A DNA stretch of 64,000 nucleotides, taken from the sequence record PQ511146.1. One strand, written 5' to 3'. Position numbers and translations under genes: made by a program. This DNA comes from Escherichia phage NHEP1. How positions within the stretch are numbered: the first letter of the stretch is position 1; every line of letters starts with the position of its first letter. Positions 1,908 through 49,118 of this stretch are shown piece by piece. A model generated the notes under the pieces. That model was not told where the DNA came from. It saw only the letters and a program-made list of their open reading frames with translations, and did no database searches.

Positions 1908-2029
1908 AAAATTCTAAATGAGAACTTCTCGCATTTCATAAATTTAATTAGCATGCTAATTACCTACCGTGACAATTCTATATAAAATAATACCTCCTTA
2001 AGTATTTCCATATACAAATTTTAAAAATC

Positions 2030-2210
2030 CATTTCCGAAAACGAAAAATCGCTTTCGTTCCCAAAAATTTCAGGTCGAGCGCCGGAACGATTTCCAGAAA
2101 ATCTGATTCAGAAAACGAAAAACAGATCGAGTACTGAGAAATTTATCGAGAAAAATTTTCAGAAAATTCAATCTTTGAAATGAAAAACAGATCGAGTACT
2201 GAGAGAGATG
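2030..2210. repeat. A-tract rich array with 23-bp perfect direct repeat GAAAAACAGATCGAGTACTGAGA (2117-2139 and 2182-2204)
   Basis: direct repeats 65 bp apart plus repeated GAAAACGAAAAA motifs; iteron-like. Confidence 0.6.
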
Positions 2211-3637: not shown

Positions 3638-3829
3638 TCACTTGTTGTTAAGAAGTTCTAAAACTTTCTGTTTTACTTTATCAAGATCTGTTGATTCAAA
3701 AACTGTGCGATATCCCCAACTTTGCCCATAGGAATGACTGCAATCACCGTAACACCATTGCTCAACCTGATAGTATTCAAGGAATGGGTGCTGTCTAACT
3801 ATGATACCGTCTCGATTAAAAATTACCAT
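3638..3829 (-). CDS. hypothetical protein (63 aa)
   Basis: ATG with GAGAGGGA SD. Confidence 0.55.
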   Translation of the reverse strand: MVIFNRDGIIVRQHPFLEYYQVEQWCYGDCSHSYGQSWGYRTVFESTDLDKVKQKVLELLNNK

Positions 3830-6050: not shown

Positions 6051-7277
6051 TTAAAAAGGTATGTCATCATCAAAGGCGTACTGTGCCGGATTCTGATCCA
6101 TCGGGTCGTCTTCCGCATCATCTACAGGAGGAGCGTCTACAGTGTTTTGCTGTGGGGCGGCTTCCTGTTTGGCAGCTTGAGGCTCTTGATGGTCAGTGAC
6201 TCCAGCACCGTTCTTGATCCAATCATACAACGGTTCAGCAAGATTAGTCAAGACATCTTTTGCCTCTGCAGTAATTGCTACTGCAAAATCATCAACTTTC
6301 GTTTTCTTGTCAATACGGCGACAAGCGTTCAATACCGCATTACCAACACTGGCACCTACTTCATCTTCAGTTCGGTTAGTGGCTTGAGCGTACTCTTTCT
6401 TAAGCTCGATGGTGACCACGTGCAGTGTTTTAGCCACATCTAAAGGACTGTCAATCTTAAACCCGCGATCCAGGATGATCTGCAATGCATTGATACTGTG
6501 CCCTGTCTCTACACCGATGGGGTCGTAAGAGGATTTACGCTTACCACCAGAACCTTGTGTACCGTTCTCTGCTTTAGGCGGGTAGGCCTTGAAGCCGCTG
6601 ATAATATTCCCGGTGTCTTTGTCAACAATAGCTGCAACACGACCACCTACCACCAGGTCTTTAAGCTGCTCATCAGAGACAACCATAGCACCTTCACCAA
6701 TCTTGTGATCATTGACAGTAACCACGTTGCCAACAATCTGAGTCACATCGCCATAGATGCGTAAAACGTCCTGATTGGCATTCTGCTGAGGTTTCTGCTT
6801 CTGGCCTTGTGATTGTGCACCTTGTTGCTGTTTTTGCTGCTGAGTCGCTGCTGGAGCCTCTCCTGCACCCAGCTTGACCATCTTAGCCAGGGAGCCTTTG
6901 TAATAGATCTTACCGTTATGCTCGTTTGCCTTCAAAGGGATATTTACGATCCATCCTGGCGTTACAGTTTCCCACTTGTCATCAATTTTAACAGAGACAG
7001 AGTCTTGATGACCCGGTTTAAGCAGCTTATCACCCATACTGATCCAAACTTCTTCACCACCTTGAAGCAGGTTATCAGAGGAATCCAGTTCAGAAATCAG
7101 TAAAGAGATGGTGTGGCTGGATTCAATTTTCTTACCTTGCCACACAGTGGTTTTAATACCTGTTGTAGGATCAGCACCTTTGATAGGCTTGATGCTGACA
7201 CGTTTAATCATGCCGTGAGCCAGTAAAACAGTTTCACGCGGATTCATCGGGTTAGCGAATTGTTGAATAACGCTCAT
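6051..7277 (-). CDS. putative ssDNA-binding / replication accessory protein with SSB-type C-terminal tip
   Basis: 408 aa; Q/G-rich low-complexity linker; ends ...QYAFDDDIPF, matching the E. coli SSB tip (DDDIPF); N-terminal fold not identified. Confidence 0.45.
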   Translation of the reverse strand: MSVIQQFANPMNPRETVLLAHGMIKRVSIKPIKGADPTTGIKTTVWQGKKIESSHTISLLISELDSSDNLLQGGEEVWISMGDKLLKPGHQDSVSVKIDDKWETVTPGWIVNIPLKANEHNGKIYYKGSLAKMVKLGAGEAPAATQQQKQQQGAQSQGQKQKPQQNANQDVLRIYGDVTQIVGNVVTVNDHKIGEGAMVVSDEQLKDLVVGGRVAAIVDKDTGNIISGFKAYPPKAENGTQGSGGKRKSSYDPIGVETGHSINALQIILDRGFKIDSPLDVAKTLHVVTIELKKEYAQATNRTEDEVGASVGNAVLNACRRIDKKTKVDDFAVAITAEAKDVLTNLAEPLYDWIKNGAGVTDHQEPQAAKQEAAPQQNTVDAPPVDDAEDDPMDQNPAQYAFDDDIPF

Positions 7278-7642
7278 TATTTATCTCCTTGTTCTTCGTT
7301 AGTGTTTGCCGTGTGTGCAAACCCTGCTTGAATTAATTTGTCCTGAACTTGAGCCAACAGGCCCATTGCAAAACTTGTGGTCCCAGAGAGGGCCATCAGC
7401 ATATCTCGTTGTTGAGCTACCCAACCTAAGGCATAGTCCAAACGACGATATTTTTCTTCTTCACGCAGAGCCTGGAATAATTGTTCAGCCTCTGGCTGTT
7501 GTGTAAGCTCCTGAAGTCTTCCCATGAAAGAAGAAAGCACTAGCAGAAGAGACACTTGATCTTTACTTAACCCTAAGAAAAATTCTTGAGGTTGTTCTTG
7601 CTCGTTCATCGCAACCGACGCTTGATCGTTCATTTGTTCCAT
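7277..7642 (-). CDS. hypothetical protein (121 aa)
   Basis: ATG 8 nt after GGAG; track TTG extension to 7753 covers hairpin and promoter-like sequence. Confidence 0.5.
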   Translation of the reverse strand: MEQMNDQASVAMNEQEQPQEFFLGLSKDQVSLLLVLSSFMGRLQELTQQPEAEQLFQALREEEKYRRLDYALGWVAQQRDMLMALSGTTSFAMGLLAQVQDKLIQAGFAHTANTNEEQGDK

Positions 7643-7686
7643 TATGGAATCTCCGATTTTATTTGAACAACATAGAAGGAGACACC

Positions 7687-7715
7687 ATTTTAGCATCTCC
7701 TTCTGCAAATTACAA
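7687..7715 (-). promoter_or_regulatory. candidate promoter (TTGTAA-17-TAAAAT) overlapping an inverted repeat
   Basis: hexamers derived from minus-strand reading; GAAGGAGA/TCTCCTTC inverted repeat overlaps. Confidence 0.3.
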
Positions 7716-7725
7716 CAGGTATTTG

Positions 7726-7971
7726 TTAGCCAATTACTTCGAAAGTACCCCAACTCCCGTTCAGCAGGCAGGTGATCGGATCACCATCATCGTCAATTAT
7801 TTCAAAGTTTTCAACATCCAGAATATGGTCATCGAACACAATGCTCTTATCGCCACCACCAGAAATAACAGCGTATTCCTTACCTTGTGTTAGGTTCTGG
7901 CAACCTTTGCCGCCGAAACCAACTTCAACACAACGTACTTTCTGTCCTGCGCGAGCAACTACTCCAGCCAT
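7726..7971 (-). CDS. hypothetical protein (81 aa)
   Basis: ATG start; operon context. Confidence 0.55.
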   Translation of the reverse strand: MAGVVARAGQKVRCVEVGFGGKGCQNLTQGKEYAVISGGGDKSIVFDDHILDVENFEIIDDDGDPITCLLNGSWGTFEVIG

Positions 7972-7988
7972 CTTAAGGTCTCCTGATA

Positions 7989-8291
7989 TTAATCGTCAAG
8001 TTCAAAATAGATTTTAACAGCTTCATCAAAGATTGGAATCCCGATGTTGTTGATAAGCTGCCAAACTACCATATCTTTTCCTGGATCTGGGAGAATGTCA
8101 ACCTTTCTCCATGCGCTATATATCCAGTTCGGACCGCCTTCTGCACTAACTGGTAGATTTTCACCAGCTTCTTGTAAATACTTATACAGCAAAAGGTATT
8201 CTGGGTACTCTAGAACACTGTCCTCTGTAGTATATAGCAGTTCACGGTATACTTTCAAGAATCCTGTTGGGTTGATGTTTTCAGTCTTCAT
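7989..8291 (-). CDS. hypothetical protein (100 aa)
   Basis: ATG 8 nt after AGGAGA; track start 8309 lacks an SD. Confidence 0.5.
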   Translation of the reverse strand: MKTENINPTGFLKVYRELLYTTEDSVLEYPEYLLLYKYLQEAGENLPVSAEGGPNWIYSAWRKVDILPDPGKDMVVWQLINNIGIPIFDEAVKIYFELDD

Positions 8292-8682
8292 TTGCTGCTT
8301 CTCCTGCATTCATCAGATCTGCCATAGCGTCACCAACGAAGAGGACAACCACGTCGTTGACAGCGTCAGCATCATCTTTATTGATGTTGCTGAATTTGGG
8401 GCACACTGCAATGACCATATAGACCCCGTTGCCCAACTGAACAGTGCGTGTAGTGCACATTAGTGTGGTGCTTGTGCCTTCTTTAAAGGCAAATCCTTGC
8501 AGACGTTCTTCCAGAGAGTCACCTGTGGATTTCAACAAGGCAAGATCGCCCAATGCGTAGGTAGTGTCCTCATAGGTCAGTCCAGAGGTCAATGTTGCCT
8601 TTCCATCAGAAACTATAATAACCCCATCGGCACCGTCAAGCTCAGAGGCTTCAAAGATATTAATATCCCAAATGTTTTTCAT
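8281..8682 (-). CDS. hypothetical protein (133 aa)
   Basis: ATG after GAGGAA; overlaps upstream stop. Confidence 0.55.
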   Translation of the reverse strand: MKNIWDINIFEASELDGADGVIIVSDGKATLTSGLTYEDTTYALGDLALLKSTGDSLEERLQGFAFKEGTSTTLMCTTRTVQLGNGVYMVIAVCPKFSNINKDDADAVNDVVVLFVGDAMADLMNAGEAANED

Positions 8683-8942
8683 CACGCTTCCTCGTCATCT
8701 AATGGGTTGAAGATTTCACCGAAGTATTCTAAGACTTCCAGCTCACGGGTGGTGCAGAAAACACAGTCCCCGTTGTCATCTTCGATAACGGCCTCTTTAC
8801 CAAGAACATCAACTTCAAATTCGTCGTTTAACAGAACGGAACCTGTGTAAACTTTATCTGCCGTGCAGTCCCGAAAAGCAGAGTCCTTCTCCAAGTAGTC
8901 TGGCTTAACCTTGGCTTTAATTCGTTGATATTGTTTGGTCAT
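8682..8942 (-). CDS. small protein, paralog family A (86 aa)
   Basis: ATG downstream of promoter; shares AF(R/K)DCT...DD(N/E)GD.V(F/W)CT motif with gene 9006..9260. Confidence 0.5.
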   Translation of the reverse strand: MTKQYQRIKAKVKPDYLEKDSAFRDCTADKVYTGSVLLNDEFEVDVLGKEAVIEDDNGDCVFCTTRELEVLEYFGEIFNPLDDEEA

Positions 8943-8973
8943 TGCTGTGGTCCCCTTTCGTTTTGATAGGGCC

Positions 8974-9002
8974 ATTATATTAGGCCCTATCGCTATTGTC
9001 AA
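8974..9002 (-). promoter_or_regulatory. consensus sigma70 promoter (TTGACA-17-TATAAT)
   Basis: verified through translation of the track ORF: its TTG 'start' is the -35 hexamer; spacer and -10 lie within palindrome ATAGGGCC...GGCCCTAT. Confidence 0.6.
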
Positions 9003-9005
9003 GTA

Positions 9006-9260
9006 TTAATGCTCAGGTTTTACAAAAACTACTTCGTTAACAGTGCACCAGACAGAATCCCCTTCATCATCTTTAAAGGTAAGACACTGGGCCGAGTTTT
9101 CCAACTCATCAAGTTCTTCTTGTGATAAATAGGTCCCTTCTTCCAGAAGGGCTTTTACCAGAGGGTTCTCACAAAACTCTGCTTCATAAATTGCACCGAG
9201 TGTGCAATCTTTAAAAGCTCGGTCATTTGCAACGCATTCTGGCTTCAAAGTAATTTTCAT
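9006..9260 (-). CDS. small protein, paralog family A (84 aa)
   Basis: ATG start; paralogous to gene 8682..8942. Confidence 0.55.
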   Translation of the reverse strand: MKITLKPECVANDRAFKDCTLGAIYEAEFCENPLVKALLEEGTYLSQEELDELENSAQCLTFKDDEGDSVWCTVNEVVFVKPEH

Positions 9261-9310
9261 CTTGGCGGTCTCCTTAATTATTTAAAATCAACGCTCTGTC
9301 TGTGTGGGGT

Positions 9311-9339
9311 ATCTTACATCTACCCCAACTTGTTGTCAA
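9311..9339 (-). promoter_or_regulatory. sigma70-like promoter (TTGACA-17-TAAGAT)
   Basis: consensus -35 overlapping stop of upstream gene; same -10 as the plus promoter at 29441. Confidence 0.45.
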
Positions 9340-9707
9340 CGACTATTTTCAATCATCCACCAAGGATCGAGATAAGTTTGTTGACTTTTTGCCCACTGGC
9401 AAACTTCATTGTACATCTGGATCTCTTTGTCCGTCAGTTCACGAATAGGCTCATCTATACCCTCATTTTTGTGGTAATCCCAGTCGGCATCGATTTCCCA
9501 CAACCATGACTTACGATCTTCACGTTTACGCACACAGAAGTCCCCAGGACGGCCTGCCAGTGCATTTAGGAACTCGTTCTCCGCTCGCTCCTGGAGAATA
9601 CTAAGGAGCAAAACGTTGGAGCATGACCGTAAAATATGCTTCAGCTCACAATCATCGATCTCAACTTCAATACGTTGCTTGACTGTGTGGGTACCTTTTA
9701 CTAACAT
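9336..9707 (-). CDS. hypothetical protein (123 aa)
   Basis: ATG 4 nt after GAGGAGG; track TTG start at 9734. Confidence 0.55.
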   Translation of the reverse strand: MLVKGTHTVKQRIEVEIDDCELKHILRSCSNVLLLSILQERAENEFLNALAGRPGDFCVRKREDRKSWLWEIDADWDYHKNEGIDEPIRELTDKEIQMYNEVCQWAKSQQTYLDPWWMIENSR

Positions 9708-9717
9708 TCTACCTCCT

Positions 9718-9912
9718 CTAGACGAACTCTGCAAGGGTTGTGTTGTTCACTGCACCGCAGTAGATGGAGTATCCCAACCCGTTAGGGTGTAGAAACCACG
9801 GCACACCTTGATCATCCTTCACGTATACATCTCCATTTTCCGTAAAGGGCCAATACTCTTCTCCAAGGGTAAAATACCTACTCATACCTTCAGCCAGATA
9901 CTTTACTTTCAT
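9718..9912 (-). CDS. small protein, paralog family B (64 aa)
   Basis: shares G..Y.V...D..G..WF/WY motif with the next two genes. Confidence 0.5.
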   Translation of the reverse strand: MKVKYLAEGMSRYFTLGEEYWPFTENGDVYVKDDQGVPWFLHPNGLGYSIYCGAVNNTTLAEFV

Positions 9913-10136
9913 AGATCCTCTTCAACAGCTACAAACTTGGCAAGTAGGGTGGTTCCATAGATATGATACTCACCGTTTGCCAGATGGGAGATAAACCAGG
10001 CAACACCGTCCTCGTCTTCGATCATATTGTTTCTGCGATCCTCGTCGTAATAAACCTTGTAGACCTTACCTTCTTCAAAGAATGATAGGTCTGTCATCTT
10101 CTCTTCTACAAATGTCGCTTTAACCAAAGTTGTCAT
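9909..10136 (-). CDS. small protein, paralog family B (75 aa)
   Basis: ATGA overlap with neighbours; paralog motif. Confidence 0.5.
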   Translation of the reverse strand: MTTLVKATFVEEKMTDLSFFEEGKVYKVYYDEDRRNNMIEDEDGVAWFISHLANGEYHIYGTTLLAKFVAVEEDL

Positions 10137-10417
10137 TGATCTGCCTCCTTCTTGTTGAGCCGGAACACTGCAATAATAGCATTTCCAAGATGCAGTGTCA
10201 AATCATTTCCCAGATACCATAACATTCCACGGTCATCTTTAATGAAAGGGTAACAATCCGGTGCCTTCCAGACATTATACACTTTGCCGACCTGAAAGAA
10301 ATCAGGCCCTGTTGGAATTTTAGTACCGGGCCATACTTGGGACACCTGAACGCATTCTACCTGCATAATGACAGGGATAGTCATGGAGGTAAATGTTTTT
10401 GTTGGTTCTACTACCAT
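10133..10417 (-). CDS. small protein, paralog family B (94 aa)
   Basis: ATG after GAGAGGAGA; track extension to 10507 would overlap the polymerase 3' end. Confidence 0.5.
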   Translation of the reverse strand: MVVEPTKTFTSMTIPVIMQVECVQVSQVWPGTKIPTGPDFFQVGKVYNVWKAPDCYPFIKDDRGMLWYLGNDLTLHLGNAIIAVFRLNKKEADQ

Positions 10418-10466
10418 AAAAGTCTCCTCTCTGTCTAACAACACTTCCGTGTGTTGATAGTTTACA

Positions 10467-13400
10467 TTAGTGACAATCACCCCAGTTACGACCGCACAAG
10501 TATTCACCTGTGATCTGGAACGGAACGCCCATCATTTTAGAAGCCTGCCAGAAGCAATGCACCACCATTTCGCCCACAGGGCTCCAGATAAGCTCAAGCT
10601 TTCCGTCATCATTCAAGATAGGATCGTATACCGTATTTCCATCCTTGTCAACCACTTCGTTTCCGTCCTCATCTTTGCGTGCCTTTTTGTACTTATGACC
10701 GTCGAACACATGAAGTTTAGCCTCTTGTTGGGCTTTAAATGTTTCCAGCTCTTCAATTGTGTCGAAGGTGTATACGGTTTTATACTTAGGTGTGTCAGGC
10801 ACTTGAAGCTGATATTCGTCATGGTAATAGATAATACGACGAACACCCTCATCATACCATCCACGCTTCACCATCTGGTGGTGCATGAGGATTCCGACCA
10901 AGTCGCACAACGATGCACCGCCATTTTGCTGATATGCATTAAGCAAAGAGTGTTTAGAGCGGGTCCAAATGGCATGCCCGTCAAAAGAGTAGATAAATTT
11001 CTTACCTGTTGCTTCCCAGAATTTCTCCAGATCCTCTTTACGCCCCTTAAGGCCCGGGTTGGCATCCCAGAGAGCATCAATTACTCTCTGTCCAAGTTCT
11101 GGAGAGATATCTAGCATATCTGCAACTTTATCTTTTTGTGCCCCGTACATAACCCCATATGTGACAGGCTTACCATCGTTACGGGAAATCTCCTTGCCTG
11201 CTACAGAAGAGTAAGCTTTGGCGTTATTACAGTTACCGCACACTGCCACTTTACCATTCCTTCTCACAATGATTGCTCCAGAAGGGACGGTAACGCAATA
11301 AACCAAAGAACCGCTCACCTCGACAGACTCTTTAGATAGTGTCAGCAACCCTGCTCTCTGTTTGCTACCAATCGTGATTCTGTGCTGTACGGAACGACCT
11401 TTTTTGTGAATCGCCACCGTATTATTCCGTAAACCACACTGAGTAGCCAGCGCAGACACAACCTCTACAGATTTCTTCCTGCACCCGGCCTGAGAGTAGT
11501 AGGCAACTTTTCCACCTTCGGAAGATACCCACCCGTCCCAGTTAGATAAAGAAGCTATAAACAGGTTTTTAGATTCTTTATCAAGGTCCATCAGGTTGTA
11601 GGTGAAATCCTTATTGCTGTCCAAAAACTCAAATACCCAGGACGGAACGTGGAATTGGAACCTTCTCGCCAGTAAGCCCCCTTTTGTGGTTTTCCCGCTC
11701 TGCTCTACATAACTAAGGCTTAGAGCAGAAAAAGTATCTAAAAGCGTTGCAACTTTTCTGCCCTTCCCGACCTGAATCCTGCACACGATGCTGCCGTCCT
11801 TATTTGTATGCAAGTGCCCATCATCGTGAATAGCAATAAGCAAATTAACCTGGGCAGGAGATAAGGTTGTATTCCCATAAAACTCTGCCGCATGGATAAA
11901 CCTTCTTCCTGAATTAGACCCTTTACCTGCTTTCAGGTCTTTTGCCAAATCTTCAAACAATTTATTGCTTCTGTGATCCACGGTCAGCATCCTGTGTTGA
12001 TCTGTAACCATAAAATCCACACTGCTGTTGTGGAAATGATACATATCCCCACAATAACTACGCTTAACGTAATTTAATGGAGTAACAAGGTTCATCGACG
12101 AGGTGTTGTGATCGTACTGGAACACCTGTGTTCCCGGATCAAGATCTTCAAACCTCACCCACCCTTTCTCCGTGAGAATTTGTGTATCTCCTGAATAACA
12201 GTGTGCATCGCCGTTACTTACAACATCATAATACAGACCGTTGTCAAACTCAAAGGCACCCCAGGCCCCGATGAGCTGCTCTAAGTTGGACCCGTCAATA
12301 CCGATCTCAAAGTATCCTGGAGGAACACCCCACAGACTACGCATCTCTTTACCCATAACCACTTTAGGAGATGGTTTAGGCATGTTTGCACAAATACTAT
12401 GTTTCTGTCTGGAAGTGTTTGTTAATCCAGAACTTTTAGCAGGAAGCTTGTGGTCAATCTTCAAACGTGGATGATTAAGAAGACCAGTATCAACCTTATC
12501 TTCCTTGATTGGATCAAGGACCGATCTGCGGTTTCGCAATGATAACCACAAAACGATATCTTTAGCCATCTCTCCGTTCAATTTTTCAAGATTCGGGCAC
12601 AGGTGTCCAAACGTATCTTTCAGTTGCGGAGAAGTAATAAGCGCTCTGGCTTTTCTACGTATCTTCCCAAACACTTCCTTTTTAATCCTTTCTGAGTTAG
12701 GGAAGCTTCGGAACTTATGCACAGTTGTCTGGAACTTGGCATCAGTTTTGTTCCAGAAGTTGATAATTAGATCACAATACTCTGACTCCAAAAGCTCGTC
12801 CATATATGCATATACTCGTGCATCAACATCTGCATCAGGTAAAGCTTTCTTCTTGCTGTCTTTAGTTACATCTTTAGTTCTCCACATTGTTGGGAGCCAA
12901 CCAGCACTGATCAGGTATCGCTTGATGTCGTCCTGATTGCTGATTTTCATAGGTATCTTGCAGTCAGGCATTCGCTTCTGCTGTAGGTCACTTATCGCCT
13001 GATCCATCAGCTCTTTAGGTAAAGGGTGTGGTGTAGAAGTTCCTTTGATATACCCCCTCAAGAAATCAGCCATCTTATCGGGGTCTTTACAGCCCATCTC
13101 TTCACACCATTTTATCCCCATCTTACTTACATCCCCTGTGGAGGTAAATGCTCGCTTAGGAGGAGCTTTGAACTCTAAAGCACTCATGTCCACAGGGTAG
13201 CCAAGCTTGTCTTTTAACCATTTCCAACCATTATTGGAGATTGTCCCATCTTGGTTAAACGGCTTTTCAGGGAACTTAGGCCGCTGAGACATTGATAACT
13301 CTTTTAAAGGAAGTTGTGGTTCAACACGATCAGCGATCTCTTTCATCCACGCATCGCAACGGTCACGTAAAGCAATAGCCCCATCTATGTCGAAATACAC

Positions 13401-14213
13401 CCCCTGTCGAGCCTGCAGCTCCATCAGGAAGTGCTGTAACATGCCTCGGCGTAATGCGTTCTTCCAGGTGATCTTCTTGAAGCCTTTCGGCTTCTCTTTG
13501 GCAGGATCGTACATAAAGTTCTGCATGTCAGATTTGCCGTAGAATACACCTTTTGATTCCGCTACCAACTCCTTCCAGAGCAACTCCTGGATGATAACGT
13601 CCTCGAACACACGATCCACATACTTCCACAGTGGAAGCTCACGCCAGTCATCGATTTGAACTTTCTGGTTACCAAGGGCATAGCCCCATGCCATAAGGCC
13701 ATGAGGCCCAACAGGCTGCATTTTCTTGGTAACTGGATTGAATACTGCGTCCGGACAACCTTTTGGCAAAGGGCGGTCAGGCCACAAGATTCGGCTCATC
13801 GCTAACGTATCAAACAGATTAACCGGGTGGTCGTTGATAGTCCCCATGCATTTAGGATCACGGAACATATCAAAATGAATACCGGATAATCTTTCCATCA
13901 GCATAAAGTCGTAACTGTAGCAGTTATGACAGTTCAAAGCCGTAGGTGACCAGTCTGAATTGCCTGTAAGCCAACCTTCCAACTCTGAAAAATCTGCTAT
14001 GCGAGCCTCAAAATCTGTATAAAGGGTCTTCTTTGCCAGAATGAAGTTCTTAGCTTTCTCCACATCCTCTTCAGAGTAGTGTGTGCGGTCATTTAGAGGA
14101 AGGAACAGCATAAAACGGTTCTTATTCAGCTCTTTAAACAAACCGCAGTGATAATAAAGATCTGGGTCTTCCAGCAGGCCAGAGGCCTCAAAATCGAACG
14201 ACCACATGCTCAT
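10467..14213 (-). CDS. family A DNA polymerase (3'-5' exo + pol) interrupted by an intein
   Basis: Exo I FDFEASGL; motif A IGIDGSNLEQL; motif B KPVTYGVMYG; motif C YYHDEY; AAGGAG SD; 1248-aa precursor. Confidence 0.9.
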   Translation of the reverse strand: MSMWSFDFEASGLLEDPDLYYHCGLFKELNKNRFMLFLPLNDRTHYSEEDVEKAKNFILAKKTLYTDFEARIADFSELEGWLTGNSDWSPTALNCHNCYSYDFMLMERLSGIHFDMFRDPKCMGTINDHPVNLFDTLAMSRILWPDRPLPKGCPDAVFNPVTKKMQPVGPHGLMAWGYALGNQKVQIDDWRELPLWKYVDRVFEDVIIQELLWKELVAESKGVFYGKSDMQNFMYDPAKEKPKGFKKITWKNALRRGMLQHFLMELQARQGVYFDIDGAIALRDRCDAWMKEIADRVEPQLPLKELSMSQRPKFPEKPFNQDGTISNNGWKWLKDKLGYPVDMSALEFKAPPKRAFTSTGDVSKMGIKWCEEMGCKDPDKMADFLRGYIKGTSTPHPLPKELMDQAISDLQQKRMPDCKIPMKISNQDDIKRYLISAGWLPTMWRTKDVTKDSKKKALPDADVDARVYAYMDELLESEYCDLIINFWNKTDAKFQTTVHKFRSFPNSERIKKEVFGKIRRKARALITSPQLKDTFGHLCPNLEKLNGEMAKDIVLWLSLRNRRSVLDPIKEDKVDTGLLNHPRLKIDHKLPAKSSGLTNTSRQKHSICANMPKPSPKVVMGKEMRSLWGVPPGYFEIGIDGSNLEQLIGAWGAFEFDNGLYYDVVSNGDAHCYSGDTQILTEKGWVRFEDLDPGTQVFQYDHNTSSMNLVTPLNYVKRSYCGDMYHFHNSSVDFMVTDQHRMLTVDHRSNKLFEDLAKDLKAGKGSNSGRRFIHAAEFYGNTTLSPAQVNLLIAIHDDGHLHTNKDGSIVCRIQVGKGRKVATLLDTFSALSLSYVEQSGKTTKGGLLARRFQFHVPSWVFEFLDSNKDFTYNLMDLDKESKNLFIASLSNWDGWVSSEGGKVAYYSQAGCRKKSVEVVSALATQCGLRNNTVAIHKKGRSVQHRITIGSKQRAGLLTLSKESVEVSGSLVYCVTVPSGAIIVRRNGKVAVCGNCNNAKAYSSVAGKEISRNDGKPVTYGVMYGAQKDKVADMLDISPELGQRVIDALWDANPGLKGRKEDLEKFWEATGKKFIYSFDGHAIWTRSKHSLLNAYQQNGGASLCDLVGILMHHQMVKRGWYDEGVRRIIYYHDEYQLQVPDTPKYKTVYTFDTIEELETFKAQQEAKLHVFDGHKYKKARKDEDGNEVVDKDGNTVYDPILNDDGKLELIWSPVGEMVVHCFWQASKMMGVPFQITGEYLCGRNWGDCH
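11232..12200 (-). other. intein (about 323 aa) within DNA polymerase, with LAGLIDADG-like endonuclease insert
   Basis: N-terminal CYSGDTQIL after extein ...GDAH; block B TDQH; block F VYCVTV; C-terminal ...VCGN followed by +1 Cys; LLIAIHDDGH and LFIASLSNWDGW resemble LAGLIDADG motifs. Confidence 0.7.
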
Positions 14214-14271
14214 ATACAGTTCTCCTTAAAGGGGAGGCGGTTGTACTACCCCTCCCACTCTTGGTTAAACA

Positions 14272-16350
14272 TTAAAAAGGTGTTTCGTCGTCTTCAAAAC
14301 CAGGAACGTGGTTAGAGGACGGATCATCATACTGAAGGTCTTCCTGTGTGTCAACAGGGTTAACAGCAGGGGTTATAACCTTATCAGCCACAACCTTGCC
14401 CACAGGTGTTTCTACAACTGCATGCTCCTGATCCTCAAACATAGCCTGAGGTCTCCAAACAACCTCCCCACCTTCCCCGTCTGTAAACATCTGCATTTCT
14501 TTGTCCCAGTACCAGTTGCTGGCATCATAGAACTTGCCTGTGTGGGGATCCATAACTAGAGTGTCCGCAATACCTAAGGTTTTTGCTGGGCGGTTTTTAA
14601 GACCTACCAGTCGGACACGTCCACGGGAACGATCCACCATCTCCTCTGCCTCTACCCCGACAACCACCCAGCTAAGTTGCTCCAATCCGGCACTACCGCG
14701 AAGGTTCTCTTTTCGTACAGGGTACCAGAAAGGTAACGGATTTCCATCCTTATCCTTCGGAGGTACAATCTCTGTGCGCTTCAGGTGAGCAATCACCAAG
14801 ATAAACACATTAAACTGCTTACAGAACGCGGCTAGTTGAGTCATAGCCATGTCAAGCTCTTTACGCTCATCCTTAACATTAAGCCCTGAAATCACCATAG
14901 ACAGGTGATCCAGCACAATGTAACGGCAGTGATACAGGCACACCATTTGTTTAAGCTTAGTGATCAGCTCATCTACAGGGATGGAGCCGAAATGCTTGAA
15001 CACTTTGATTTTTCCGGCCTTGGCCCAAGATTGATGAATCTCAGCGTGCTCCTGATCGGTCAGGAACTGACTGGGGTCTTCAACAAACTCTTTAACATCA
15101 AACCCCAGCTGGTTAGCGTACAGAGAGTTGATTGCTTCCTCAGGATCCTCTTCAAGGTGAATCAGGCACAGGCGATCATCCTCTTCATAATCATCAGCTT
15201 TAGGGCATGTTGGATCCATCAAGTATCTTGCAATGCAATGTTCCAGCTTCTTGGCTACAGTTGTTTTACCACCGCCAGACGGGCCTGTCAGCATCATCAA
15301 GGTGCCTTTGTGGAGTCCTTTCAGCATCTTCTGCAGTTTAGGGAACTCTGCACTGATATCTACGCCATTGGAAGTCTTCTTACGAAGAGATTCAATGGAG
15401 AAGTCTTCTAAATCAGATACAGCATCAGGCACATATTTGACTGGGTGACGGAACATGTTGACAATATCTTCCAGCTTTTTAGCCTTCAGCATGTCACGAA
15501 TATCTTTTACACCATCAGGGTCGTTTACCTCACCCGGGTATTCCACGTGGTAAACGTTATCAGCCATCAAAAATGCTGCGATATTATGTGTGGCTTCAAC
15601 ACCTTTAATAACGTGTTTTTGCTTCTCTACCTCGTTAGCTGCATCGTTGTCCATTGCAAGGACCACTGTTCCGTAGCTACGGATAAATTTCTCATTGTTC
15701 GCAAAAGTGTCTACGGCGTTTGCACACCCACAGTTAATTCCAACAAAAGGCAGGCATGGTTTTCCTGCCAGATCCCCGCCGTTGATAACTGCATCAATCC
15801 CATCCTGGACTTCTTTAGCCCACTGCTTCACCTTCGCTGGGGCTTTAGCATTGGTGAGAATTCCTTTTACTTGTATCTGATATGCAGCCTGCCACGCTGC
15901 AATAACATCTCCTTCTCCCTCACAAACGTTAATCTGCTTACGGTTGTTGGAGGATGCACACAGCTTTTGACCAAACATCTGGGAGTTGGCCTTTACTATG
16001 CCAACAACCGAGAAATGGCCCCTTTGCTCTTTAGGGATTGTCCAGTCACGCTTTTTAAAGCCAGATAGATTACCGTAGCGGTCATAATACGGAAAGTAGG
16101 TGGCAGTAACAGTTACACCATCCTCTTGGGATAGCGATGATCGTACACCAAAATATTGTGCAGCCATCAGTCCAATATTTTGTTGTGGAACAGGGACAAT
16201 TTTAGTGTTTTCTAAAACAGTCTCCACAGTTTCAACTTCTTTTTCATCACGATAGTCTCGTTTCACACTCCCCCCACTTTTATACTTAGTTGCTTTCGGG
16301 TTTGGCTCACCGAAACGGTTGTATGCAGATGCCATGAATTTACTGCCCAT
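14272..16350 (-). CDS. T7 gp4-like DNA primase-helicase
   Basis: TOPRIM-like VCEGEGDVIAAW; DnaB-type Walker A GPSGGGKTT and Walker B IVLDHL; acidic C-terminus ending DDETPF; AAGGAGAAG SD; no Cys4 zinc-binding domain seen. Confidence 0.85.
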   Translation of the reverse strand: MGSKFMASAYNRFGEPNPKATKYKSGGSVKRDYRDEKEVETVETVLENTKIVPVPQQNIGLMAAQYFGVRSSLSQEDGVTVTATYFPYYDRYGNLSGFKKRDWTIPKEQRGHFSVVGIVKANSQMFGQKLCASSNNRKQINVCEGEGDVIAAWQAAYQIQVKGILTNAKAPAKVKQWAKEVQDGIDAVINGGDLAGKPCLPFVGINCGCANAVDTFANNEKFIRSYGTVVLAMDNDAANEVEKQKHVIKGVEATHNIAAFLMADNVYHVEYPGEVNDPDGVKDIRDMLKAKKLEDIVNMFRHPVKYVPDAVSDLEDFSIESLRKKTSNGVDISAEFPKLQKMLKGLHKGTLMMLTGPSGGGKTTVAKKLEHCIARYLMDPTCPKADDYEEDDRLCLIHLEEDPEEAINSLYANQLGFDVKEFVEDPSQFLTDQEHAEIHQSWAKAGKIKVFKHFGSIPVDELITKLKQMVCLYHCRYIVLDHLSMVISGLNVKDERKELDMAMTQLAAFCKQFNVFILVIAHLKRTEIVPPKDKDGNPLPFWYPVRKENLRGSAGLEQLSWVVVGVEAEEMVDRSRGRVRLVGLKNRPAKTLGIADTLVMDPHTGKFYDASNWYWDKEMQMFTDGEGGEVVWRPQAMFEDQEHAVVETPVGKVVADKVITPAVNPVDTQEDLQYDDPSSNHVPGFEDDETPF

Positions 16351-17120: not shown

Positions 17121-17149
17121 GCAAAAAGCCCCACCCTTTCGGGCAGGGC
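17121..17149 (-). terminator. rho-independent terminator (same GAAA-loop hairpin as at 6014)
   Basis: GCCCUGCCC-GAAA-GGGUGGGGC + UUUUUG on minus strand downstream of gene 17156..17638. Confidence 0.55.
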
Positions 17150-29375: not shown

Positions 29376-29404
29376 ACTATATCGTGGATTTAGAGTAAAG
29401 TCAA
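29376..29404 (-). promoter_or_regulatory. sigma70-like promoter (TTGACT-17-TATAGT), divergent partner
   Basis: hexamers seen in the intergenic strand-switch region. Confidence 0.55.
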
Positions 29405-29417
29405 CACGTTTTTCAGG

Positions 29418-29446
29418 TTGACATCTTCTCAGGCACTTGGTAAGAT
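29418..29446 (+). promoter_or_regulatory. sigma70-like promoter (TTGACA-17-TAAGAT), divergent partner
   Basis: the track TTG 'start' at 29418 is the -35 hexamer; real ATG is at 29478. Confidence 0.55.
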
Positions 29447-29477
29447 TTCTCCACCCACAGAGAACAAGAGACAACTC

Positions 29478-30467
29478 ATGAATCTTGAAAAATATTATAC
29501 ACCAGAAGAGTTAGAGCGCTTGCTCAAAAAATACAGACGCAAACAGAATAACGCACGGAAACGGGATATAGAGTTCAACCTGTCATGGGAAGAATATCTC
29601 CTATTTGGTAAAAAACTTTTAGGAGAGGGAGTATGCGACTATACCCTTATACCTTTCGACATGCACACAGATGAAAACGGACTGGGAAATCCTTTCTACC
29701 CATCTCTGGAGCGGATAGATGATGAAGGTCCTTATGCGGTTGACAATTGTTGTGTGGTGGGATTGAGATGCAACTCCCTAAAGGACTGCCTGGTAGATAA
29801 AAAGACCGCAGTCTTGATTAAAGACAAAACTGATCGAAAAATTGTCCAGCAGATGATGCTCCACCTGAGCGAAGAGCGTATGGAGAAATTGAAAGGTGAT
29901 TACACTTTTGAAGATTTCATCTTGCAATATGGAACGGAAGAGGATAAACTAGCACTCTTTGACGAAGAATGGGAGGAAGATATGTCACCGATGCAGGATT
30001 TTAAAAACTTCATGGCTAATCGTGGAGCCAACAAGCACATTTCTGACATTGTAAACGAGCCTGTAGTAGAGGAGATTGGAGAGATGACGCAACAGGCTTA
30101 CGAAGAGGAAAAAGAGCCTCAAGTGGTCGAAGAAGAGCTTACAGAAGAGGTTCCTGCACTGCCTGACGATGTTGAGATTGCCAAAGCTTACACTTTCTAT
30201 TGCCAGACGTTCTACGATGCAGGTATGAAAGTTGATCTGTCATTCAGCCAGTTTAAGAGCACATACATTCGAAAATGTTGTGCTTTAACTGGTGAACGTC
30301 TCGGTGCCGGACTTAAACCCCTATTAGTTACCGACTGGAACAAAGGTTTCACCAAAGGTAACTTCATGGTAGTATCTCCAATCATGGAGAAGGCTATGAC
30401 AGACCTTATGAAGACCACTCGCATGACAATGACCGAGTTGGCTGGTATTTTCAAGCACGTTAAATAA
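29478..30467 (+). CDS. hypothetical protein, possible HNH-like nuclease (330 aa)
   Basis: ATG 8 nt after AAGAG; F.LSWEEY...C.YT and SLERIDDEG...DNCCVVGLRCNSLK resemble HNH_3 / endonuclease VII-type motifs, with R in place of the catalytic H. Confidence 0.55.
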   Translation: MNLEKYYTPEELERLLKKYRRKQNNARKRDIEFNLSWEEYLLFGKKLLGEGVCDYTLIPFDMHTDENGLGNPFYPSLERIDDEGPYAVDNCCVVGLRCNSLKDCLVDKKTAVLIKDKTDRKIVQQMMLHLSEERMEKLKGDYTFEDFILQYGTEEDKLALFDEEWEEDMSPMQDFKNFMANRGANKHISDIVNEPVVEEIGEMTQQAYEEEKEPQVVEEELTEEVPALPDDVEIAKAYTFYCQTFYDAGMKVDLSFSQFKSTYIRKCCALTGERLGAGLKPLLVTDWNKGFTKGNFMVVSPIMEKAMTDLMKTTRMTMTELAGIFKHVK

Positions 30468-47045: not shown

Positions 47046-49118
47046 TTATGAGAAGTCTGGCGGAACAACATCTTCTACATACCCTTTCAGAGCAACCTGT
47101 CCCATATGCAGAACAGTAGAATCTCTGGCGGTAACAGTGATGCTGTCAGACATTACTTGCGGGTATGCCCACACATACTGTTTTACCTCAGGGTATCTAT
47201 ACTCTATGGTTGCCATGTTTCCGCAGATACATCTCCATAAAAATTCTTGGTAATTCCTGGTTGGGTCGTAGCCATATACCGGAGCAAGCTCTTTGCTAGG
47301 AACGAACCCTGCAAGGTATTGTATTTCAGACGGTTGCCAACCTAACTTAACGATAGGTATGTTTACAGACTCTTTTGCCTTTTCAATACCGCCCTGCATC
47401 ACCCAATCGTAGCACTCGGTGCAGAAGAAATCAAGAGCGCCTGCTTCCTTTTTATATTGGTCGGCAAGGTTCAGTTTTTGCGTAAGCTCGGTTTCCATAA
47501 TGGTCGGGAAAAACAGCAAAGCTGTCATCTGAGCCGATGCAGCATGTGCTTTTATTGCCTTTGAAATAGCTGCAATACGAGCTCCAAGCTTACCACGACA
47601 AAATGCTACATACTTGTCATAAACACCGCCAGTTTTAGGATCGTCAATAGTCCCAATGTCTAGTGCATATTCACCAGTCTCATCATAAAACGCCTGCTTT
47701 GTAGGGTAGTCATAAATACAAGGCTTACGAGTATCGGTATTGAACCACCACCACGGTTCACCAATCTGCATAATCACTGGCAGGTTGTTTCTCATAGCGG
47801 CTGATGCAAAATTCTTAAATACTGCAGTAAGGAAATTCATACCCTCTTCAATGGTTGGAGACAGGAGGTAACTACAAGGCGTATAGCCTGTTTTAGCATA
47901 GTTATCGTTCCAGTCTCTCTGGGTCCATTCCAACGGACAGGCATCGCTATAAAGCTCAAAGCTTACAGACTGCATAACGTCGAAGTCATGTCGTTTGGCA
48001 TTGTACATAAAATCATCATGCCATTTATAAGCTGCAGCGTTTAGAGCTCCTGTTTTGTTTATAGACCATTGGGTTCCTGACCATGTGTAGTCATAATAAT
48101 GGCTCATACCAACATAATGGTTTATGGTTCCTGTATAGCCCAGACGCTTGATATTACTCAACACCCTTAAAGGGGATACGTTCCACATATCGTCATATGC
48201 TGTGCAGATCCCAACATCGTGTTCTTTCACCTGAATATTGTTAAGTTGCATCATTTTCCAGCCTGTGTCCGGCTGAAGAAGATCTAGACGCAACTCACAC
48301 TCTACATTTTCCGTTCTCGGGTCTGTGCTATTACCTACCCAATCTTTAGGCATAAGTGGTATTAGAATCCTTCTCACCTGCCGGGGATCAACACCCATCA
48401 TGTTGTTGTTCTGGTCCATCCCGACGCAGTCCTCGAAATCAATATGAATTTCTGCAACATTCTTATCCTCTGAGATGCTGACAGCATATTGAGCTAAAGG
48501 AACATAGATGATTGTACCATCAACAAGGTCTACAGTCATAATCATCTTTTCAGGGGTGGAGAAGTTGCTGGCATTGGTTATTGACATTCTGAACCAAAGC
48601 TTGGTGTTTCTCATCTCGTAGTGATCATCAAATCCAATGCCGAAATGGTCATACTTGTCAACTGTTTCCCAAATGCACCCAGCCATGCCCCCATATGTTC
48701 TTGACACTAAACGATTAATACAGCAGTTATTATCCGCAACAATACAGGTGCTTTCAGTCTGCTGTGTGGTTGTAACCCAGTATCTTGGGTGAAACATTCT
48801 CTCCTCAACGGTATCCCAAGATATTCTGTCAAGATTTTCATCTGAAACTATTGTACATTTCGCTCTTTGTGTTCCAATCATAACCCCTTGGGAGTTTGAT
48901 GAAAACTCCATAAAGAAGCTCCTTGGCAACCTGTTTGGCAATTTGTCAACAATTTCTACAGGGATCTCGATACTGGTTGCCCCAACCGGGATAGTTACAT
49001 CGCCCTCAACATGATCATAATCCCTACCCGGAACTGCAGTATCCTGAACTGTGCGGTAATGAAACCGTGCAGCCATTGTAGAGTAATCACGGTAAGGTTT
49101 AAAAACAGCTGTTGCCAT
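47046..49118 (-). CDS. tail/baseplate-associated structural protein (690 aa)
   Basis: large ORF inside the structural operon; no diagnostic motif. Confidence 0.6.
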   Translation of the reverse strand: MATAVFKPYRDYSTMAARFHYRTVQDTAVPGRDYDHVEGDVTIPVGATSIEIPVEIVDKLPNRLPRSFFMEFSSNSQGVMIGTQRAKCTIVSDENLDRISWDTVEERMFHPRYWVTTTQQTESTCIVADNNCCINRLVSRTYGGMAGCIWETVDKYDHFGIGFDDHYEMRNTKLWFRMSITNASNFSTPEKMIMTVDLVDGTIIYVPLAQYAVSISEDKNVAEIHIDFEDCVGMDQNNNMMGVDPRQVRRILIPLMPKDWVGNSTDPRTENVECELRLDLLQPDTGWKMMQLNNIQVKEHDVGICTAYDDMWNVSPLRVLSNIKRLGYTGTINHYVGMSHYYDYTWSGTQWSINKTGALNAAAYKWHDDFMYNAKRHDFDVMQSVSFELYSDACPLEWTQRDWNDNYAKTGYTPCSYLLSPTIEEGMNFLTAVFKNFASAAMRNNLPVIMQIGEPWWWFNTDTRKPCIYDYPTKQAFYDETGEYALDIGTIDDPKTGGVYDKYVAFCRGKLGARIAAISKAIKAHAASAQMTALLFFPTIMETELTQKLNLADQYKKEAGALDFFCTECYDWVMQGGIEKAKESVNIPIVKLGWQPSEIQYLAGFVPSKELAPVYGYDPTRNYQEFLWRCICGNMATIEYRYPEVKQYVWAYPQVMSDSITVTARDSTVLHMGQVALKGYVEDVVPPDFS

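Follow-up and report, generated by a model that had tools for sequence, protein, structure and literature searches.

Promoter-early stem-loop (PeSL) cassettes have been described in the T4-type phages RB49/phi1, PST and nt-1 (Arbiol 2010, PMC2839356; Comeau 2014, PMC4122927). Their layout runs from an upstream stop codon in AT-rich sequence through a sigma70 consensus to a stem-loop, and then to a Shine-Dalgarno sequence and ATG; the stem-loop lies most often between the two boxes or over the -10, G-T pairs have been noted in it, and the cassettes lie between ORFans and lowered read-through in a reporter assay (PMC2839356). Another described system close to the present locus is phage rV5, for which Kropinski et al. 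(2013) predicted 33 sigma70-type promoters across the genome and argued for reliance on the host polymerase, and which also encodes gp11, an Srd-like anti-sigma protein, its late genes being preceded by a T4-late-like motif (PMC3606486).

The stretch analysed here (“the window”) comprises 64,000 nucleotides of Escherichia phage NHEP1 (PQ511146.1) and is 93-99% identical to rV5/FV3-like coliphages. Over positions 7000-14500 there are 120 matching phage records (85-98% identity), almost all from rV5/FV3-like E. coli myophages (Vequintavirus), and the 201 nt around the promoter described below match 115 records at 87.6-99.5%. An earlier first-pass annotation, made from the letters only, had taken the reliance on strong host-type promoters to point to a gammaproteobacterial host, and the coliphage identity bears this out, as had been published already (PMC3606486). 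A side observation concerns 16 GenBank records (MG0656xx) entered as “Campylobacter phage” with host Campylobacter jejuni: they are about 95% identical to Vequintavirus over the region, which suggests mislabelled hosts or contaminating coliphages.

The locus of interest is a promoter filling the 63 nt that separate two small early genes, paralogues of one another, and its elements, with those of three further promoters to which it is compared, are the following.

9006-9260, minus strand: upstream gene, 84 aa, homologue of rV5 ORF220, with its TAA stop 3 nt before the -35
8997-9002, minus strand: -35 hexamer TTGACA, invariant in 36/36 sequences
8983-8991, minus strand: left (5') arm of the inverted repeat, GATAGGGCC, at spacer positions 6-14
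8974-8982, minus strand: loop, TAATATAAT, 9 nt, holding the entire -10
8974-8979, minus strand: -10 hexamer TATAAT, wholly in the hairpin loop, with a 17-nt spacer from the -35
8965-8973, minus strand: right (3') arm, GGCCCTATC, covering the discriminator and the predicted start, its first two G invariant
8967, minus strand: predicted transcription start, an A, placed 7 nt 3' of the -10 by the canonical distance
8951-8958, minus strand: Shine-Dalgarno sequence, AAAGGGGA, 9 nt ahead of ATG 8942, annotated as a ribosome-binding site in the Murica record
8682-8942, minus strand: downstream gene, 86 aa from the real ATG start, homologue of rV5 ORF219
9305-9339, minus strand: TTGACA-17-TAAGAT, rV5 P220, with a 7-bp repeat TGGGGTA-N9-TACCCCA around the -10 (p = 0.018)
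10165-10201, minus strand: TTGACA-17-TATTAT, rV5 P224, with an 8-bp repeat ACACTGCA-N18-TGCAGTGT (p = 0.002)
29418-29446, plus strand: TTGACA-17-TAAGAT, rV5 promoter P11 (P011), a 10/12 match ahead of the Srd-like anti-sigma gene

On the minus strand, positions 9002-8974 are an exact TTGACA-N17-TATAAT with ATAGCGATAGGGCCTAA as the 17-nt spacer, a 12/12 match to the sigma70 consensus, just as the first-pass annotation had read them. By our own arithmetic a match of this quality is expected about 0.01-0.02 times in the 128 kb of two strands; allowing at most one mismatch, the window holds 10 sites against 0.44 ± 0.64 in shuffles, and none of 100 shuffles reached 10. Conservation was followed in 36 sequences, namely the window and 35 relatives drawn from GenBank phages, two IMG/VR contigs, one gut-metagenome contig and 15 Logan/ENA/NCBI contigs located via the protein. 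Scanning IMG/VR and the metagenome collection with the 16-mer around the -35, a pattern too short for the purpose, gave about 200 loci, of which BLAST filtering left L165 as the only relative new to the set, L035 and L083 being duplicates of L003 and L002, respectively. The -35 is the same throughout, the -10 is TATAAT in 26 sequences and TACAAT in the other 10, and the GG directly 3' of the -10 is invariant, with spacer and discriminator variable around them. In the record of phage Gotham, the homologous 29 nt already carry a predicted-promoter annotation.

We are confident from these sequences that 8974-9002 is a genuine early promoter, as predicted, for the host sigma70 RNA polymerase, and by homology it is the counterpart of what would be “P219” of rV5, a site omitted from the published rV5 promoter table. 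It is co-oriented with the downstream gene, and the Shine-Dalgarno sequence and ATG 8942 follow 32 nt 3' of the -10. The canonical spacing between a -10 and its start would place the start of transcription at about 8967. A literature search for experimental start sites or transcriptome data for Vequintavirus found none.

The mechanical open reading frame 8682-9002 begins at the TTG of TTGACA because the list of open reading frames picks the first start after a stop. That this TTG is an artefact, as had been proposed, is upheld by the Shine-Dalgarno sequence with ATG 8942 and by indels between the -10 and that ATG in Alma (-1), CM1 (+1) and L230/231 (+1), three independent events, all frame-breaking, which therefore exclude a conserved N-terminal extension and show the stretch between TTG 9002 and ATG 8942 to be non-coding. 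In L234, GTG replaces ATG at the 8942 position. On this comparison we are confident that TTG 9002 is not a start, its letters being simply the opening TTG of the -35 box, and that the predicted promoter drives a small genus-specific gene whose true start is ATG 8942. Public records use three different start codons for this gene: ATG 8942 (Gotham, Murica, nom and JEP1), the ATG contained in TATAATG, within the -10 box (rV5 ORF219, ECP32 and JES2013), and, in the FV3 record, an ATG created in the left arm of the inverted repeat. The point matters for annotation, since three starts compete in public and the commonest lies inside the -10 box, where the largest protein cluster begins (97 aa, 113 member sequences). 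Both readings, of the promoter and of the start-codon artefact, are thus well supported and mostly present already in public annotation.

The first-pass annotation had also seen the same artefact at 29418, and correctly so: the open reading frame 29418-30467 opens at the TTG of TTGACA in the same way as 8682-9002, rV5 annotates P11 there, and a relative that is 100% identical over a 171-nt query spanning 29418 has its annotated start at ATG 29478. Against rV5, the 60 nt between 29418 and ATG 29478 are much less conserved than the coding sequence that follows, and the true start of the anti-sigma gene is, on this sequence evidence, ATG 29478. As an aside, 29376-29446 holds divergent, back-to-back promoters whose -35 boxes are only 8 nt apart: TTGACT-17-TATAGT at 29404 on the minus strand (rV5 P010) diverges from 29418 on the plus strand (P011), the pair sitting between a fucosyltransferase-like gene and the Srd-like anti-sigma gene.

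What sets 8974-9002 apart is the inverted repeat in which its spacer and -10 lie, as the first-pass annotation had noted; the stem (8991-8965) measures 9 bp, one pair more than the 8 given there. With both hexamers held fixed, none of 2000 shuffles produced a stem around the -10 that reached 9 bp, and the fold at the promoter reaches -17.4 kcal/mol (z = -6.65 against hexamer-preserving shuffles). For the 73-nt intergenic stretch the folding energy is -18.9 kcal/mol with RNA parameters (z = -3.55) and -9.1 kcal/mol with DNA parameters (z = -2.66). Across the whole window there are 8 perfect inverted repeats of at least 9 bp, with 4.5 ± 1.6 in shuffles; the unusual feature is the coincidence of a palindrome with a promoter, not the palindrome itself. 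Over positions 1-30000, Rfam gave no family at gathering score.

An intrinsic terminator was considered and rejected, as the U-run is absent: none follows the stem (the next bases are CAAAACGAAAGG; CAAAACG), and the terminator scan did not list the site. The real terminators of this phage are canonical, GCCCTGCCC-GAAA-GGGTGGGGC with a T-run at 17149 and 6035, and they share with the present hairpin a G+C-rich stem just after a stop codon; the hairpin at 8965-8991 differs from them in its missing U-run, in its 9-nt loop and in having escaped the scan. At 17200-17128 (minus strand), as a separate observation, an 11/12 promoter (rV5 P231) has this strong canonical terminator about 25 nt downstream, and only beyond the terminator come the Shine-Dalgarno sequence and start of the next gene, an odd order of promoter into terminator; the stem of 17149 recurs at 6035-6014 (minus strand).

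Variation among relatives was analysed in 18 distinct 47-nt haplotypes. Although the relatives are about 95% identical, 14 of the 18 arm positions vary, and three pairs have had both partners replaced: in the rV5 clade G-C has become A-U (SYGMH1 shows the G.U intermediate), in CM1 A-U has become G-C by way of the common G.U form, and in L234 U-A has become C-G (L226-229 show the U.G intermediate). Standard pairs occupy 95.7% of pair cells, and shuffled 3' partners still give 94.2%. The covariation score is 0.241 against 0.202 ± 0.014 and was attained by 5 of 500 shuffles, a frequency that, by the caveat of the covariation tool, can arise in 5-25% of unconstrained related alignments. Disruptive variants are singletons and compatible ones are common haplotypes, and five haplotypes carry a broken inner pair. 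Promoter function, and not pairing, may explain why the GG of the right arm is invariant.

The two strands do not fare equally. On the sense strand a hairpin of -7.2 kcal/mol or better is found in every haplotype, with a mean of -12.3 kcal/mol against -9.35 kcal/mol on the antisense strand, where it can be as weak as -2.2 kcal/mol; most single changes give a G.U pair in the sense hairpin and an A/C mismatch in the opposite one. We do not trust the Wilcoxon p = 0.0026 for this asymmetry across haplotypes, because the haplotypes are related; the asymmetry depends largely on one shared A-to-G change, and a count of independent events gives about 6 wobble-creating against about 3 mismatch-creating transitions, which is not significant. 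Taken together, maintained pairing and the G.U bias are suggestive of a coding-strand structure, in RNA or in single-stranded form, and the inverted repeat is best seen, on these alignments, as a modestly conserved sense-strand stem-loop with a substantial chance of having no function.

How such a stem-loop might act follows from where the start is predicted. With transcription beginning at about 8967, inside the right arm, the hairpin would be absent from this promoter's own transcript, and therefore would form only in read-through RNA from the 9339 promoter, where it would sit 15 nt after the upstream gene's stop codon. There it would most likely serve as a weak attenuator and/or as a structure protecting the 3' end of the upstream message, and the embedded promoter would restart transcription for the next gene; formation of the hairpin in the transcript, and any influence on read-through or on the stability of the message, are what we infer from the arrangement. 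REP-type stabilisers are intercistronic stem-loops that shield upstream mRNA from 3' exonucleases, and the hairpin resembles them as a stable structure free of a U-run shortly after a stop in a polycistronic unit; the sequences are unrelated and the likeness is one of architecture only. On balance we lean towards a genuine sigma70 promoter with a PeSL-type sense-strand stem-loop that is not an operator, TTG 9002 being part of the -35.

A plainer account keeps the promoter and denies the repeat any function, making it a chance product in an unconstrained spacer and discriminator that shared descent has preserved among relatives 88-99% identical. We think this somewhat improbable and still a serious contender: perfect inverted repeats of this length are more numerous in the window than expected, shuffled partners pair nearly as well as the true ones, the first-step transitions show no significant preference for wobbles over mismatches, five haplotypes have the inner pair broken, and the 34 rV5 promoters tested below have no general enrichment. 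Full compensatory replacement at three different pairs, with G.U intermediates also seen, speaks for constraint instead, as do the 5/500 covariation result, the restriction of disruptive variants to singletons, the compatible ones being the common haplotypes, and the presence of repeats around the -10 at two adjacent promoters, for which our own estimate from background is about 0.12 expected in the window. At the other extreme lies the view that even the hexamers are a chance match with no transcription start, the gene then depending entirely on the upstream promoter, with ATG 8975 or TTG 9002 as possible start codons. The site's absence from the rV5 table fits this, and so do the many public records with a 97-aa product that starts at the ATG inside TATAATG; yet the rV5 site is TACAAT (11/12) and the rV5 promoter screen was “stringently” done, a 12/12 match is hardly expected in two strands of this length, the hexamers hold as surrounding bases vary, and the frame-breaking indels rule out a conserved N-terminal extension. 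We consider such a coincidence extremely improbable.

The first-pass annotation had proposed that the inverted repeat may act as an operator, and this did not hold up. A dimeric phage or host DNA-binding protein would occupy half-sites over the -10 and silence the promoter once the early phase is over; dyads centred on a -10, as in lac O1, LexA boxes and lambda OR/OL, are the textbook arrangement for repression by occlusion, symmetric double changes would be expected here too if both half-sites must match, and rV5 encodes a putative GntR-like regulator elsewhere (ORF79). Unlike in those systems, the half-sites vary among close relatives, at the 14 arm positions already given, and do not recur: half-site ATAGGGCC is found 3 times in the 64 kb against 1.29 expected, two of the three being the dyad itself, and the dyad pattern GGGCC-N9-GGCCC twice against 0.72, neither beyond chance. 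Many variants alter one half-site only (G.T on one strand, A/C on the other), substitutions keep pairing and not sequence, and the inverted repeats at neighbouring promoters are different and unrelated, so that an operator seems to us quite unlikely. Still less probable is extrusion of a cruciform under negative supercoiling, with G+C-rich arms around an all-A/T 9-bp centre, masking the promoter or pre-opening the -10 and thus making the promoter supercoiling-sensitive. An A/T-only centre flanked by G/C arms would favour local opening, the hairpin under DNA parameters is the one of -9.1 kcal/mol given above, and Horwitz and Loeb reportedly engineered, in 1988, E. coli promoters regulated by cruciform extrusion. 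A 9-nt loop on a 9-bp stem is poor for extrusion, however, and common variants put A/C mismatches in the complementary-strand hairpin, which at worst weakens to between -2.2 and -3.5 kcal/mol (RNA parameters); a two-armed cruciform is therefore not maintained.

Returning to the PeSL-type stem-loop as the favoured reading, the likeness to the T4-type cassettes extends over an A/T-rich stretch holding the upstream stop codon, sigma70 boxes, a stem-loop of G-run and C-run arms over the -10 with G-T tolerated, a Shine-Dalgarno sequence and ATG at the 3' end, and a location in a recombining region with small early ORFans on both sides, the comparison for the hairpin at 8965-8991 being one of sequence layout only. 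The differences are that the phage belongs to another family, that its promoters have no shared extended sequence, and that just 3-4 of 34 rV5 promoters carry a strong inverted repeat. A shared cassette was rejected on the direct-repeat search, in which no repeat family joined the promoters, the hexamers being all they share. By its sequence, 8965-9002 thus appears PeSL-like in layout and outside any genome-wide repeated cassette family. With the rV5 predictions it shares genus and consensus, and the promoters at 9339, 10201 and 29418 (P220, P224 and P011) are tabulated for rV5, P220 in its Table S4; the published table, whose promoters are themselves predicted, lacks the site preceding the ORF219 homologue, and the stem-loop is undescribed there.

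To see the repeat against its genomic background, the 33 tabulated rV5 promoters, with the P219 site as a 34th, were set against 4000 random genome windows. The mean best stem is 4.88 against 4.77 in the background (p = 0.63), with no general excess among the 34, and rV5 promoter regions fold less well than the genome average; a general rule linking promoters with hairpins was rejected on this result. Only the tail of the distribution stands out, with stems of at least 8 bp at P219, P051 and P150, three against 0.77 expected. Outside the window, in rV5 itself, the repeat of P051 (L239 ~48276-48329), TGCACCATA-N20-TATGGTGCA, spans the -10/late-type motif, and that of P150 (L241 ~5-55), CACACAGG-N16-CCTGTGTG, spans the -35.

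The surroundings of the locus are those of a recombining region of small genes. It is mosaic at a scale of 100-300 nt, and no indel bounded by the promoter/stem-loop element was found. The flanking genes are genus-restricted ORFans: a Pfam scan of both gave no family, and homologues of the downstream gene were found only within Vequintavirus. The 84-aa and 86-aa products are paralogous at 29% identity. Beyond them, the small genes of 7726-10507 (minus strand) share motifs (AF[KR]DCT ... DD[EN]GD..[WF]CT; KDDQGVPWF, EDEDGVAWF, KDDRGMLWY) and resemble a tandem paralogue array, for which the paralogy statistics cover the 84-aa/86-aa pair (E = 1e-8). Seven array genes scanned against Pfam gave no family, the sole match being DUF7238 in the neighbouring gene 7992-8309. 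At the promoters just upstream, the hairpin of 9339 is present in the window and JEP1 and is not kept in most relatives, and the P224 repeat extends from the -35 to just past the -10.

As a tentative extension, more doubtful than the reading of the single locus, a few rV5-like early promoters, the present one among them, might carry a selected sense-strand stem-loop around the -10 that insulates small-gene modules against read-through and marks the boundaries of exchange, PeSL elements then reaching beyond the T4-type phages. If the stem-loop is functional, promoter/stem-loop modules would occur also in a family of large coliphages unrelated to the T4-type, which would bear on the insulation and shuffling of early ORFan genes; otherwise, the site is one further strong host-type promoter in a phage group known to use such promoters.

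Several observations elsewhere in the window may be recorded. At 2024-2204 (plus strand), a repeat search found two to three diverged copies of a 47-55-nt unit, 65-74 nt apart and 70-78% identical, in a stretch with a long A/T-rich hairpin; despite these copies, Tandem Repeats Finder called nothing over 1500-2800. The family-A DNA polymerase at 10467-14213 (minus strand, 1248 aa) has an intein-like insert beginning CYSGDTQILTEKGW...; relatives covering just 87% of the query have no polymerase insert, others have an HNH endonuclease gene there, and Pfam on the 1248-aa protein gave only a weak DNA_pol_A match.

Finally, just downstream of the window's other perfect-consensus promoter (3888) lies a 63-aa ORFan at 3638-3829 (minus strand), whose protein is 87-90% identical to that of a gene in the T4-type Krischvirus phages Phi1, Brandy and GEC-3S, Krischvirus being the group where PeSLs were described; the counterpart in Phi1 is ORF260 (L242 701-892). 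The DNA homology runs from the Shine-Dalgarno sequence and ATG to the ATG of the next gene, and the upstream promoters are unrelated, Phi1 having tandem copies of a TTGACAAGTACAACCGAAAATAAGTTG unit there instead. From this pattern, the ORFan looks like a recent exchange of a single-gene module between unrelated phage families.
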